Made by a program: the position numbers and the translations under genes
Origin: Psychrobacter sp. HD31
Lineage (GTDB): Bacteria > Pseudomonadota > Gammaproteobacteria > Pseudomonadales > Moraxellaceae
Reading direction: 5' to 3'
DNA length: 32,000 nucleotides
NCBI RefSeq assembly: GCF_051097895.1
Contig: NZ_CP142525.1
Location: 1,590,001 to 1,622,000, forward strand
In this document: positions 1 through 4,225 of the stretch, in pieces
How the letters are laid out: every line of letters starts with the position of its first letter
How positions within the stretch are numbered: the stretch's first letter is position 1
The notes under the pieces: model-generated
What the model was told of the DNA's origin: nothing
Databases searched by the model: none
The model's input: only the letters and a program-made list of their open reading frames with translations

Positions 1-12
1 TCTAAAAATTTA

Positions 13-57
13 AGTAGAGTGCGTTCTACGCACCAGCTTACTACTCACACTATAATT
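13..57. repeat. Palindromic-arm intergenic repeat, copy A (truncated form)
   Basis: 13-35 AGTAGAGTGCGTTCTACGCACCA is 22/23 identical to the reverse complement of the right arm of copy C (1683-1705). It matches the left arms of copies B and C at 19-20 of 23 positions. It lies directly 3' of the rsmB-fragment stop, as copy C lies 3' of intact rsmB. Confidence 0.7.
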
Positions 58-63
58 TAACTA

Positions 64-300
64 TCAAACCTTCCTCAATACCGCATAATAAAAGCCATCG
101 CCACCGCTTTTGTTTAAGTCGCTATCTATTGGCAAGCATTGGCGTCCAACTGCTTGTTCAATGCCTCAATCTGCGTCAATCTTGACCTCATTGGCATCGC
201 TATGGTCTGCCAAAAACGCCAACATTTGGGTCTCGTTTTCATCTTTTAAAATAGAGCAAGTGGCAATAATTAAAACCCCGTTTGGTTTTAATTATTGCCA
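64..300 (-). pseudogene. Duplicated 3'-terminal fragment of rsmB (last ~79 codons), inactivated
   Basis: 61-300 aligns without gaps to 1718-1957 (offset 1657 bp). I counted 17 mismatches in 240 nt by hand, with an 81-nt identical block at 185-265. The minus-strand frame reads ...GRQCLPIDSDLNKSGGDGFYYAVLRKV*, but the Trp codon of the intact copy is TGA here (+ strand tca at 166-168). Homology stops at ~300, so there is no N-terminal part. Confidence 0.85.
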
Positions 301-431
301 TGACATTGGTTATAAAGTCGACTACTTGTTTTTATTAAATTTTTTCCATATAGTTAACTGGTTATTTAATGATTTAAAGCTCAGTCAAAATGGCAGAGAA
401 GCCCACGTTATGAATTAAAAAAGGAAAATTT

Positions 432-920
432 ATGAGCATTCAAGAAAACTGGCAAAAAGTTAAAAAAGTCCTTGAAGAAGGTCAAGCATCTACGATTTAT
501 TGCTCTATCGCAACGGTTAACCCCGACGGTTCGCCACATATCACGCCAGTGGGTACGGTTTTTCTTCGTGACGATTTAACCGGATATTTTTTCGATCATT
601 ATGCTGTAAAAATGGGAGAAAATATCGACTCAAATCCTAATATTTGTATCATGGCAGTTAATGCAGGTCGTATGTTTTGGTTACGCTCACTGATTAAAGG
701 CAAGTTTGTATCACATCCTGGCGTTCGGCTTTATGGTAAAGCAGGACCAGTTAGACCAGCAACAAAAGAAGAAATAAAGAAAATTGAAGACCGTGTTAAA
801 CCTACAAAATGGCTTAAAGGTGCTGGCTTGCTTTGGACTGATTTTACCCATGTAAGAGATGTAGACTTTAGTGACTATAAGCCAATTACCTACCCTGTTA
901 TGATGGATGGAATGTGGTAA
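432..920 (+). CDS. Pyridoxamine 5'-phosphate oxidase-like (FMN-binding split-barrel) family protein
   Basis: 162-aa ORF with SD-like AAGGAA 8 nt upstream of the ATG. The N-terminal pattern ...IATVNPDGSPHITPVGTVF... is typical of the PNPOx-like fold family. It lies inside the insert bracketed by the rsmB duplication. Confidence 0.65.
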   Translation: MSIQENWQKVKKVLEEGQASTIYCSIATVNPDGSPHITPVGTVFLRDDLTGYFFDHYAVKMGENIDSNPNICIMAVNAGRMFWLRSLIKGKFVSHPGVRLYGKAGPVRPATKEEIKKIEDRVKPTKWLKGAGLLWTDFTHVRDVDFSDYKPITYPVMMDGMW

Positions 921-1033
921 ACATGCTAGAGTCATAACAAGTCAGGCACTGGATGAAAATGGTAATTTCGTTTAGTTTTGCCTGTGCTTTCATTGATATA
1001 AGTATCTACTGTTTTTTGAGGCAAAACGAGTTA

Positions 1034-1106
1034 AGTAAGATGCGCTCTACGCACCATTTTATGAGGAATAGCTAAGTTATTTTGCGGTGTGTGGAACGAA
1101 TGCTAC
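1034..1106. repeat. Palindromic-arm intergenic repeat, copy B
   Basis: The left arm is AGTAAGATGCGCTCTACGCACCA (1034-1056) and the right arm is CGGTGTGTGGAACGAATGCTAC (1085-1106), an imperfect inverted repeat. The central ACGCACCATTTtATGAG...ATTaTTTTG is shared with copy C but carries an extra ~11 nt. Confidence 0.7.
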
Positions 1107-1244
1107 AAGATTTTTCGATAAGATTATCTAAGCATTTATGCCCTTATAGTAAGGTATTAGGCGCAAGAGGAGAGGGCTATCAAATTCTTAAAAATTTTGT
1201 CTCTTAAAGTTAGATTAAGAGCTTTGTCTAAACAAGAAATATGT

Positions 1245-1646
1245 ATGCCAATAGAGATATTTTCATTATCTCGAGAAATGGAAAAGCTTTACCCAGATAT
1301 TAGAGTACAAGCTATATTTGAGGAGTTTAAGAGCAATAATAGTGCTTTTGTAAGGCGTGCAATGCTTACAGTAACAAGATTTATTGGTGCAGAATTTGCA
1401 CAAGACAATGTAGATTACATTAGAGAATCAATAAAAGACCAAGACGAATGGGTTGCTTATGATGCAATTTGGTCACTATCTGAAAATAATTTGTTAACTG
1501 CCAATGACTATACAACTCTGCTAGATTATGCAGAATCATACAGCGATTTGAGTTTAGAGGAACTAGAACAAATTTCTCCAAAATCTGCTGATGAATATCG
1601 TAATAAAATTGCCGCCGAGGCACTAATAAAACTAGCTAGTAAGTAG
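1245..1646 (+). CDS. Hypothetical protein (helical-repeat-like, function unknown)
   Basis: The ORF is open from a TTG at 1197. I placed the start at the first ATG (1245), but it is uncertain because no start has a strong SD. The sequence is AT-rich. The stop TAG (1644-1646) lies inside the left arm of repeat copy C. I do not recognise a family. Confidence 0.5.
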   Translation: MPIEIFSLSREMEKLYPDIRVQAIFEEFKSNNSAFVRRAMLTVTRFIGAEFAQDNVDYIRESIKDQDEWVAYDAIWSLSENNLLTANDYTTLLDYAESYSDLSLEELEQISPKSADEYRNKIAAEALIKLASK

Positions 1647-1705
1647 AGTGTTTTCCACGCACCATTTAATGAGATTGTTTTGTGGTGAGTAGAACGCACT
1701 CTACT
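1642..1705. repeat. Palindromic-arm intergenic repeat, copy C (complete form)
   Basis: The left arm is AGTAGAGTGTTTTCCACGCACCA (1642-1664) and the right arm is TGGTGAGTAGAACGCACTCTACT (1683-1705). The arms pair at 19/23 positions, the terminal 9 nt form a perfect inverted repeat, and the loop is 18 nt. It sits between the hypothetical ORF stop and the rsmB stop. Confidence 0.8.
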
Positions 1706-1720
1706 CACTTAATCGAACTA

Positions 1721-3208
1721 TCAACCCTTCCTCAACACCGCATAATAAAAGCCATCGCCACCACTTTTATTCAAGTCACCATCTATTGGCAAACATTGGC
1801 GTCCAACTGCTTGTTCAATGCCCCAATCTGCATTAATTTTAACCTCATTGGCATCGCTATGGTCTGCCAAAAACGCCAACATTTGGGTCTCGTTTTCATC
1901 TTTTAAAATAGAGCAAGTGGCATAAATCAAAACCCCGTTTGGTTTTAATTGTTGCCATAAGTTTTGCAAAATCTGTTTTTGCAGGCTTACCGTTTGTTCT
2001 ACATCATCTTCTTGACGAAGCAAACCAATATCAGGATGGCGGCGCATAACCCCTGTTGCCGTGCATGGCGCATCTAACAAAATAACATCAAACTGCTCAG
2101 TATTTTCTGTATCTGCTTGCCAACTGGTGGCATCAGCACAAATTAGCAATGCCTCATCAGTTAGTGCTAAACGCGCTAAAGTTTGCTTACTGCGTTCTAA
2201 TCTATTTGCCTCGCTGTCAATTGCCGTGAATGTGAGTTTAGACGGCGCCTCTGAATGAATCAACTTGACCTTATCATTGCCTGTTTTATCCACCCCAATT
2301 TTTTTGGCAACAACAGGGGTGATGTCTGTTTTGTCAAACAGCTCTAAACAATGCGCCAGCTTGCCACTTGGTGCGGTGCACGCATCTAATATGTGCAAAT
2401 GATTGTTAGGGTTGTTTGCAAGCATATCCTGAGCAATGGTTTTAACCATGCTACCTGCAATACTGGCATGCGCGTCCTGTACGCTCACCATACCGGTATC
2501 AAAGTTTGGTAGGTTAGAGATAGATTGAGACTGTGTTAGGCGGATAGGGCTTATAACGGCTTCTTGATTGTCATTAAGCCCATTTAAAGCAGTTGATAAC
2601 GTAAGTATCTCATGCTCTATTTCGGTTTGTTGTAGCTTATGGGCATAATCTTGCAAGCCTGACTGGCGGGCATTGACACGCAAAAACATGGGGGCAGGCA
2701 CACGTATGCCTTTGCATAACTCGTTATATTGGTCTCGCCAATCTTGTTTTAGCTGTTTAGCAAGCCAGTTTGGTAGGCTGTGTTTTTTATCGCAGGCTTT
2801 ACGGTACTTAGCTGGGTTTTTGGCAACTTTACGTAATATGGCATTGACCAAACCTGATGCACGCTCAAAGCCCAGTTGTTTAACCGATTCTACTGTTTCA
2901 AAAATTGAGGCATGGTCAGCCGTTTCAAGATAAATGAGCTGAGTAATGCCCACTTGAATGGTGGTACGAACCTCTATTTCGTCAATGGGCTTGTCGGCAA
3001 GGCTATCTAATAAGCGGGCAGTTGCGTGCCAATGGCGCAGGCTGGTAAGCAATAGGTTATGTACAAAACCTTTGCTATTTTCTGCCACTTCTGCCAGCAA
3101 GCCATCAAGCATGTTGCTAAGTGACAACCCCTGCTGGACGTTAATCAGGGTTTTTATCACCGCTGTGCGTGAATTATCTGTGTTGGTTGGGGTGTTTGGT
3201 GTTTTCAT
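1721..3208 (-). CDS. rsmB: 16S rRNA (cytosine967-C5)-methyltransferase RsmB/Sun
   Basis: 495 aa with an N-terminal NusB-like region. SAM methyltransferase motifs are present: ILDACTAPSGK, LLDAPCTATGVMRRHPD and YATCS. It lies immediately downstream of fmt on the same strand, the classic fmt-rsmB order. Confidence 0.93.
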   Translation of the reverse strand: MKTPNTPTNTDNSRTAVIKTLINVQQGLSLSNMLDGLLAEVAENSKGFVHNLLLTSLRHWHATARLLDSLADKPIDEIEVRTTIQVGITQLIYLETADHASIFETVESVKQLGFERASGLVNAILRKVAKNPAKYRKACDKKHSLPNWLAKQLKQDWRDQYNELCKGIRVPAPMFLRVNARQSGLQDYAHKLQQTEIEHEILTLSTALNGLNDNQEAVISPIRLTQSQSISNLPNFDTGMVSVQDAHASIAGSMVKTIAQDMLANNPNNHLHILDACTAPSGKLAHCLELFDKTDITPVVAKKIGVDKTGNDKVKLIHSEAPSKLTFTAIDSEANRLERSKQTLARLALTDEALLICADATSWQADTENTEQFDVILLDAPCTATGVMRRHPDIGLLRQEDDVEQTVSLQKQILQNLWQQLKPNGVLIYATCSILKDENETQMLAFLADHSDANEVKINADWGIEQAVGRQCLPIDGDLNKSGGDGFYYAVLRKG

Positions 3209-3232: not shown

Positions 3233-4225
3233 TTACAAATCAAATTTATCGCCATCATTTAGTTTATTACCAGTACAAATTTGTTCTGCCGTTAACGCTT
3301 TACCACCTGCAAACTGTAATTTGGTTAAACGCAGGGTTGTACCTTGATCATTTGAGTCTTTACCGCAAGCGACTAAAATGGCTTTTTTACCCACGCTGAT
3401 AATCGTCCCTGCCATCTCATCTGTTGGTTGGCTCTCATTTAATGGCAGTGACTCAATCACTTTAACACGTTTGCCATTAATAAAACTAAAAGTGCTTGGG
3501 TAAGGGAACATACCACGAATTTGGCGAGCAATCTCACCTGCTGGTTTGTTCCAGTCAATTTGTCCTTCTTCTTTGCTTAACTTGTCGGCATAATTGGCAA
3601 GGTTATCATCTTGTTTTTCAGCCTTTGCTTGGTAGCTTGGCAAATCAGCCAGTACGGTTTTAACCGCAGTAGCCCCAAGTTCTGCCAGTTTGTCGTGCAG
3701 GCTAGCTGTGGTGTCTGTCTCTGCAATGTCGCAAGCCAACTTATATAGCATATCACCTGTGTCTAGCCCTTTATCCATCTGCATGATGGTAATGCCCGTT
3801 TGCGTATCGCCGGCTAAAATAGCACGGTGGATAGGTGCAGCACCTCGCCAACGAGGTAATAATGAACCATGGATATTAATACAGCCCAGTTTAGGGGTGT
3901 TTAATACGCCAACTGGCAAAATTAAACCATAGGCAGCCACAACCATAACATCCGCATTATAGTTTGCTAAAGTTTCACGTGAAACTAAGCCGCCTTCTTT
4001 GGCTTTGCTAAAGGTTTCTGGTTGTTCAACACAGATACCATGTGCTAAGGCGACCTGCTTAACGGCAGACTGTGTTACTTTTTGTCCTCGCCCTGCCTTG
4101 CGGTCTGGCTGAGTATAAACGGCAACAATGTCGATGTTTAATTCGTCTTGGCTGTCGATTAAAGCTTGCAAGCTTACCGCAGCAAACTCGGGTGTGCCTG
4201 CAAATATTAGTTTGGTTTTTGGCAT
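3233..4225 (-). CDS. fmt: Methionyl-tRNA formyltransferase
   Basis: 330 aa. It has the N-terminal IFAGTPEFA and the catalytic motif NIHGSLLPRWRGAAPI. Confidence 0.95.
   Translation of the reverse strand: MPKTKLIFAGTPEFAAVSLQALIDSQDELNIDIVAVYTQPDRKAGRGQKVTQSAVKQVALAHGICVEQPETFSKAKEGGLVSRETLANYNADVMVVAAYGLILPVGVLNTPKLGCINIHGSLLPRWRGAAPIHRAILAGDTQTGITIMQMDKGLDTGDMLYKLACDIAETDTTASLHDKLAELGATAVKTVLADLPSYQAKAEKQDDNLANYADKLSKEEGQIDWNKPAGEIARQIRGMFPYPSTFSFINGKRVKVIESLPLNESQPTDEMAGTIISVGKKAILVACGKDSNDQGTTLRLTKLQFAGGKALTAEQICTGNKLNDGDKFDL

Follow-up and report, generated by a model that had tools for sequence, protein, structure and literature searches.

The 32,000-nucleotide stretch analysed here (the window; G000:C1:1590001-1622000) belongs to the genome of Psychrobacter sp. 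HD31, which is a single contig of 2.17 Mb with 39% G+C. At its left end lies rsmB, the gene of an rRNA methyltransferase, and, between rsmB and thrC, part of an accessory gene island that contains a second, degenerate copy of the rsmB 3' end. Plain coordinates are window positions, and coordinates labelled G000 are positions in the whole genome. RsmB is about 52% similar at the amino acid (aa) level to the proteins of named Psychrobacter species and 81% to that of a metagenome-assembled genome (MAG), which places the organism with Psychrobacter in the Moraxellaceae; its lineage is Psychrobacter-like with a reduced genome.

Read from thrC, which is encoded on the same strand as rsmB, the island consists of two open reading frames (ORF260 and ORF267), a repetitive extragenic palindrome (REP), the orphan rsmB tail, a PNPOx-like flavoprotein gene, an inverted REP doublet (REPIN), a HEAT-like ORF, a second REPIN and then intact rsmB (Table 1).

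Table 1 Features at the left end of the window
Feature	Position	Strand	Remarks
End of the 267-aa K+-channel-domain ORF (ORF267), last codons and stop	1-5	+	gene at G000 1589202-1590005
REP singlet with second-arm remnant	11-60	+	GTAG head plus GTGCG/CGCAC hairpin
Pseudo-rsmB 3' end, 79 codons and stop	62-301	-	outer repeat copy
Illegitimate joint, ATTATTGCCAT	291-301	.	identical in strain C contig L017
PNPOx upstream region	302-431	+	96-97% identity with strains A, B and C
PNPOx-like flavoprotein gene, 162 aa	432-920	+	PNPOx_N, E 6e-15
Degenerate REPIN (inverted REP doublet), 3' of the PNPOx gene	1032-1105	+	kept in strains A, B and C
AT-rich HEAT-like ORF	1245-1646	+	133 aa (ATG 1245) or 149 aa (TTG 1197)
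REPIN between the convergent HEAT-like ORF and rsmB	1640-1710	+	long hairpin
Intact rsmB, 495 aa	1721-3208	-	last 240 nt (1721-1960) form the inner repeat copy
fmt, conserved flank	3233-4225	-	part of the fmt-rsmB(-thrC) unit found in relatives

A repeat search returned a direct repeat of 249 nt (53-301 and 1710-1958, offset 1657) with an identity of 92-93%, and whole-genome blastn located just these two copies of the rsmB 3' end. Both rsmB tails align colinearly and without indels (MAFFT). The 17 mismatches within 61-300 leave a longest perfect run of 81 nt (185-265). The inner copy completes RsmB, whose domains are complete and match the Pfam profile Methyltr_RsmB-F up to its final position. 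Read in the rsmB frame, the outer copy has lost a Trp codon to TGA (166-168) and carries a second stop, TAA, at 292-294. The first-pass annotation of this DNA had described two colinear copies at the same offset with 17 mismatches in 240 nt and one 81-nt perfect block, the inner one finishing an intact rsmB and the outer one an orphan tail with the TGA codon, each followed past its stop by the same family of palindromes, and between them a PNPOx-like and an AT-rich ORF. This description was reproduced throughout, the mismatch count exactly. The TAA codon comes as an addition, the palindromes proved to be a singlet (11-44) and an inverted doublet (1640-1710), and the AT-rich ORF matched nothing beyond a sub-threshold HEAT_2 profile.

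Further strains were represented by short Logan contigs from other samples, reached through the exact PNPOx protein and through RsmB at the level of 90% clusters; they are labelled A (L016 and L020, from one sample), B (L021, with L018 similar) and C (L017). Across common DNA they are 96-97% identical to the studied genome (G000). The junction between the pseudo-tail and the PNPOx region is identical on the independent contig of strain C, which rules out an assembly artefact. In strain A the array reads thrC - ORF142 - REPIN - PNPOx - REPIN - ORFx (226 aa) - REPIN - rsmB, in strain B ORF142 - REPIN - PNPOx - REPIN - HEAT-like ORF, and in strain C pseudo-tail - PNPOx - REPIN - ORF81 (81 aa) - REPIN - rsmB. 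Strains A and B therefore possess PNPOx, and B the HEAT ORF as well, without the pseudo-tail. In strain C the duplication junction is present with a different adjoining cassette, and each ORF between REPINs varies independently of the others.

The boundary between the pseudo-tail and the PNPOx region coincides with a perfect microhomology of 11 nt, ATTGTTGCCAT, common to rsmB (which at the joint reads AATTGTTGCCATAAG) and to the region upstream of PNPOx in strain B, which is not rearranged (ACATTGTTGCCATGAT). Within rsmB it is situated 240 nt before the stop codon. Leftwards of the PNPOx upstream region, strains A and B have unrelated DNA and then a REPIN; in G000 and strain C the rsmB tail takes the place of this DNA at 291-301. 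The microhomology at this position points to an illegitimate, microhomology-guided joint and not to an att (attachment site) core. No match to the junction sequence was obtained in a scan of JGI metagenome contigs.

The outer and inner tails differ by 7.1%, and the functional tails of G000, A and C are 7-10% apart from one another. Third codon positions hold 11 of the 17 differences (binomial P=0.008), and the change is synonymous in 8 of the 14 differing codons inside the repeat (15 if the first codon, just beyond the joint, is counted). This third-position bias and the synonymous changes indicate that most of the divergence arose while both copies were still functional. The outer copy has the variant of A and C at four sites where the inner copy is private; at eight, the TGA among them, it is itself private and found in no functional allele compared; at seven the tails show a mixed pattern. 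Since shared and private variants are interspersed, similarity among the tails of G000, A and C did not tell the resident from the incoming tail. From these comparisons the two copies appear to be two population alleles brought together, the orphan having decayed afterwards. The earlier annotation had read the 7% divergence as speaking against a recent tandem duplication; the figure stands, and it equals the allelic divergence between strains. Along rnr-fmt-rsmB the identity between G000 and strain A is a mosaic of 91-100% and is lowest beside the island, a pattern consistent with what repeated recombination at the border of a hotspot might produce.

The site itself is normally short. Among 24 congeneric species, 18 have the start of thrC 35-68 bp past the rsmB stop, and in four more the spacer measures 168-625 bp (rsmB DNA and thrC protein matches); thrC thus lies at most 625 bp from rsmB in 22 of 24 congeners, and in the other two species rsmB and thrC fall on separate contigs. 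The short spacer in most congeners marks the empty site as the ancestral state, and the suggestion in the first-pass annotation that relatives be checked for such sites was borne out, at least 18 of the 24 Psychrobacter species having one. Eight quite different genes, among them ParDE, LysE, HNH and PhyH, occupy the site in the nearest MAG (L019), between the flanks rnr-fmt-rsmB and thrC-aldolase-ABC, which are the same as in G000, and a further contig, L049, whose RsmB is 77% identical, carries yet another gene set after rsmB. These different gene sets identify rsmB|thrC as a hotspot in this clade: the species itself shows four arrays, those of G000, A, B and C, and sister lineages add two more gene sets.

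Taken together, the pseudo-tail is probably the scar of an exchange between strains that had one illegitimate joint and took place in a recombinase-free accessory hotspot punctuated by REPs. In this scenario the rsmB-thrC spacer, about 50 bp in most Psychrobacter species, would have become a hotspot in this lineage, where small accessory genes between REP/REPIN palindromes, including a former integron cassette and a K+-channel gene, would swap among strains. Ordinary homology in a conserved flank would have anchored a segment from a strain with a different array, and the other end of this segment would have been joined illegitimately at ATTGTTGCCAT. Two alleles of the rsmB tail would thereby have come to lie in one chromosome, one keeping its gene and the other losing its gene body and gaining stops. 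The anchor may have been on the thrC side, in which case ORF260-ORF267-REP-tail would have been imported in place of ORF142-REPIN (variant 1), or on the rsmB side, in which case the segment from PNPOx through HEAT and the REPIN to the tail would have been imported (variant 2); the latter corresponds to the replacement 3' end envisaged by the first-pass annotation. Both variants fit equally well. The DNA may have entered by natural transformation, with a mechanism of the type of homology-facilitated illegitimate recombination (HFIR). The genes for ComEC and DprA are intact in G000, and both are also present in non-transformable control genomes.

Several observations weigh against this explanation. 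The parental array that it predicts, ORF267-REPIN-intact rsmB, was found in no database searched (by an ORF267 homologue search and by exact look-ups). A microhomology of 11 nt is at the long end of HFIR reports. Gene conversion between the copies at a later time could be the source of the 81-nt perfect block (P about 0.01); this block spans the conserved segment of the catalytic Cys, where A and C are only 1-2 nt apart. In addition, retrieval of the strain contigs through the PNPOx protein introduces an ascertainment bias, and the array of strain A consists of two contigs bridged by an overlap of 25 nt, across which ORFx is one unbroken 226-aa frame.

Documented cases of HFIR with microhomologies of 3-10 bp come from transformable Acinetobacter, Pseudomonas stutzeri and pneumococcus, the Moraxellaceae being among the taxa where it was defined (PMC6382021). 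The present case resembles HFIR in Acinetobacter baylyi, Pseudomonas stutzeri and Streptococcus pneumoniae in that there is no recombinase, one homologous anchor and one microhomology joint. It differs in the length of the microhomology (11 nt against 3-10 bp), in the gene end that stays duplicated, in a donor that would be a strain of the same species and not a foreign species, and in being read from comparative sequence. A second parallel is provided by the minimal mobile elements of Neisseria, whose incorporation is presumed to proceed via homologous recombination in a transformable bacterium (PMC3082526). As in those elements, conserved genes, here rsmB and thrC, bracket whole-gene cassettes that differ by strain and contain no mobility genes; unlike them, the island comprises multi-gene arrays with REPINs and the scar of a gene fragment, in the Moraxellaceae and not the Neisseriaceae.

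A closely related possibility, which we consider unlikely, is a Campbell-type event, in which a fragment that spanned the DNA between the PNPOx upstream region and the tail, both included, was circularised by end-joining at the microhomology and then integrated by a single homologous crossover in the rsmB tail. The tail would have been duplicated as in the attL/attR picture of the first-pass annotation, with RecA and not an integrase as the agent. It yields exactly the direct-repeat geometry that is seen, makes use of the same microhomology and needs no site-specific recombinase. The linear HFIR variant 2 fits the data alike. On the other hand, it asks for two rare steps, with integration through only about 250 bp of homology diverged by 7-10%, and it should have left tails that are chimeric around one crossover, whereas shared and private variants are interspersed over the whole tail.

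The palindromes of the island raise the question of whether they took part themselves. Their consensus, AGTAGGGTGCGTTCCACGCACCA, combines a GTAG head with a GTGCG/CGCAC hairpin. The genome contains nine copies at up to five mismatches and about 11 by nhmmer, all intergenic (11-44, 1032-1105 and 1640-1710 in the window; 889.9-891.8 kb, 1735879/1736499 and 2,067,897, the last with E 5.7e-05, in the genome), and all but one are in two accessory-gene clusters or at a locus of a REP-associated tyrosine transposase (RAYT). At that locus, 146 kb from the island, ORFs with matches to NF047646 (REP-associated tyrosine transposase; E 1.5e-26 and 1.2e-10) and to PDB 4er8, the structure of E. coli TnpA-REP (E 6e-19), lie between REPs at 1735879(+) and 1736499(-); a frameshift divides the gene between two frames. 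The GTAG head, the hairpin and a RAYT gene bracketed by inverted copies define the palindromes as REP/REPIN elements and the RAYT gene as a pseudogene. Related REPs occur in several congeners. The REPIN before rsmB, between convergent genes and hence in the usual position of a REP, folds as one long hairpin (1636-1712; -12.9 kcal/mol, z -3.98, none of 200 shuffles as good). Its counterpart beside the pseudo-tail, at 11-60, has lost the loop and most of one arm. The third element is degenerate in its fold (1030-1112, z -0.45) and is conserved in A, B and C despite a different next ORF. An assignment of the palindromes to integron attC sites was rejected on the lack of RYYYAAC/GTTRRRY boxes, the GTAG head and the association with RAYT. 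GTAG heads, GC-rich hairpins, inverted doublets and inverted copies flanking a RAYT gene are shared with known REP/REPIN-RAYT systems (PMC3733652, PMC3337134); unlike in those, there are only about 11 copies, the RAYT gene is frameshifted, and the copies are clustered and not dispersed genome-wide.

Beyond a role as passive terminators, REPINs could in principle act as portable recombination sites that shuffle integrase-free, integron-like arrays of single genes between strains. We regard this as doubtful; if true, it would explain why nearly all of the few REPs in the genome are found in accessory clusters, why strain differences are bounded by REPINs and why a REP is included in the duplicated unit. 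Still less probable is the specific proposal that RAYT-mediated or REPIN-to-REPIN recombination moved ORF-plus-REPIN modules here and dragged the rsmB tail along with the adjacent REPIN. A REP or REPIN does follow every island ORF, the repeat unit takes in the REP (11-301 against 1640-1958), nearly all of the roughly 11 genomic REPs are in accessory-gene clusters and the RAYT locus, and the cassette differences between strains start and stop at or within REPINs. Against this, the sole RAYT gene is frameshifted, the breakpoints have no fixed position relative to the REPINs, a homologue of the K+-channel gene exists elsewhere without a REP, and the decisive joint at 291-301 is away from any REP. 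Transport of cargo genes is not known for any RAYT.

Other observations on these palindromes stand apart from the duplication. In strain C the REPIN before rsmB (L017 1137-1200) has an extra GC-poor hairpin (GATGCATGCTTGGGCAAGAAACATGCATTC) where its left arm would usually be; REPIN arms themselves appear to undergo remodelling. A second REPIN-punctuated cluster of small orphan ORFs is located at G000 889.9-893 kb (L014 5896-9070), between polA and a DEAD-box helicase gene; it encodes two immunity-like proteins of the Barstar family and holds a tiny RAYT remnant (890033-890146). Another GTAG-headed, REP-like element, GTAGGTTGGCGTCGAGGTAACGAGACCCAAC, is present in three copies. After it comes a promoter-like module (TTGTYA-N17-TAGGAT...ATAATAAATTGTTA) that is conserved and stands ahead of different accessory ORFs in five copies. 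The sites of element or module are G000 1588341-1588440, 221350-221439, 222694, 1148171-1148262 and 1561190, of which the first, 100-160 nt to the left of the first island ORF, is exactly where the variable region begins on its left side. In the congener G018 the rsmB-thrC spacer is taken up by a complete doublet of the GTAGGTTGGCGTCGAGGTAACGAGACCCAAC type (L007 280-350). Lastly, a hairpin repeat of 155 bp is found at G000 1588162-1588316 and, inverted and 93% identical, at 1561388-1561543; the copy upstream of thrC is conserved in strain A and is outside the variable segment.

The first-pass annotation had pointed to the geometry of attL and attR sites, expected when an element integrates at the 3' end of a gene and supplies a replacement end. 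In the corresponding alternative, a small integrative element was once inserted site-specifically at the rsmB 3' end, its integrase since lost or encoded elsewhere. Direct repeats of a gene's 3' end around foreign genes are indeed the classical signature of such elements, and the content of the site differs between lineages. Staphylococcal cassette chromosome (SCC) elements, for example, occupy the 3' end of rlmH, which also encodes an rRNA methyltransferase, with direct repeats of the gene end. The present island is like SCC at rlmH and the islands at tRNA and tmRNA genes in having foreign genes past the end of a housekeeping gene, here likewise an rRNA methyltransferase gene, with direct repeats of that end. 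It departs from them in the absence of a recombinase, of a short identical core and of co-variation between repeat and insert. Between thrC and rnr no ORF was recognised as a recombinase (no search was aimed at serine recombinases), in agreement with the earlier remark that the insert encodes no integrase. PF00589 matches in the genome are confined to a P4-type (phage-type) integrase at 167.6 kb, XerC at 988.7 kb and XerD at 1733 kb; the nearest to the island is XerD, at about 143 kb, and the P4-type integrase is 1.4 Mb off. A recombinase or more cassettes had been suggested as possible beyond the left window edge; the DNA there has two accessory ORFs and then thrC, with neither an integrase nor further repeat modules. 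The junctions have no short identical core in common, the repeat being 249 nt long at 92-93% identity. Nor do the repeat ends qualify as att sites, one being the microhomology with cassette DNA that in other strains lies beside a REPIN and away from any rsmB sequence, and the other running through the REP. The supposed two-gene insert is not a unit tied to the duplication, because its genes occur in A and B without it and the ORFs vary independently. A scan for tRNA and tmRNA genes and Rfam at gathering thresholds over 10 kb (island and left flank) returned nothing, so the island does not sit at a tRNA or tmRNA gene. Of the attL/attR proposal, the direct-repeat layout, the accessory island and the empty sites persist; the origin from att sites is very improbable. 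The least credible alternative is that the rsmB end was duplicated in tandem in situ, that the copies then diverged for a long time and that the two genes were inserted between them afterwards. It would account for colinear, indel-free copies, but not for differences biased to third codon positions and at the between-strain level, for an outer copy that shares variants with functional alleles of other strains where the inner one is private, or for a joint with cassette DNA at a microhomology.

The accessory genes themselves have diverse affiliations. ORF267 contains a C-terminal K+-channel pore domain only (Ion_trans_2, E 4e-13). Its closest homologue, 82% identical at the nucleotide level, lies between IS110 and IS66 transposase genes on unrelated JGI metagenome contigs, and the homology ends 3 nt past the stop codon, which shows that the REP does not travel with the channel gene. 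Homologues of the channel are patchy, with 54% in Vibrio and 39% in Pseudoalteromonas, and adjoin insertion sequence elements. To the left, ORF260 encodes a soluble protein of about 242-260 aa without a Pfam match and is separated from thrC by about 350 bp of non-coding DNA; together with ORF267 it forms a two-gene pair, 12 nt apart (G000 1588461-1590005). PADLOC gave noise-level matches only for the four island proteins, and exact look-ups of the rsmB, thrC, HEAT ORF, ORF267 and barstar-like (second REP locus) proteins found none on record.

The closest homologues of the PNPOx protein (75-77% aa) are encoded in integron gene cassettes of Marinobacter and Thalassolituus. In Marinobacter a unit of about 530 bp, composed of the ORF and an attC site, is 91-94% identical across species and found in varied contexts (loci L033-L048); its GTTATGC boundary and the foldable attC after it make it recognisable as an integron cassette. 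In G000 the sequence GTTATGA (407-413), 18 nt before the PNPOx ATG, is positionally homologous to the GTTATGC core site of Marinobacter, and its complement TCATAAC (932-938), 11 nt past the stop codon, is what remains of the attC R'' box. Neither 921-1040 nor the PNPOx upstream region folds better than shuffled sequence, and the Marinobacter attC folds canonically. A candidate attC of a preceding cassette at 291-412 was discarded, as it does not fold. No IntI was detected in the genome with the PF00589 profile. By its homologues and core-site relics, the PNPOx gene is apparently a cassette that escaped into an integron-less genome. Set beside integron cassettes and clusters of attC sites lacking integrases (CALINs), it is a bona fide ORF-plus-attC cassette in Marinobacter of which G000 keeps positional core-site relics; unlike these, G000 has neither IntI nor a foldable attC, and the palindromes between its ORFs are REPs.

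The rearrangement at rsmB|thrC is a new instance of known processes. It leaves current concepts unchanged and is of value chiefly for annotation and as a case study. For annotation, a duplicated 3' gene end around foreign genes alone is no proof of a site-specific element. For the lineage, the hotspot arose inside a tight, operon-like gene pair of a reduced genome, and an integron cassette of Marinobacter-like bacteria persists there without an integron. For the family, exchange between strains as proposed above would make the pseudo-tail a clean natural example in the Moraxellaceae of gene gain without a recombinase, leaving a datable scar that is seen in both G000 and strain C.

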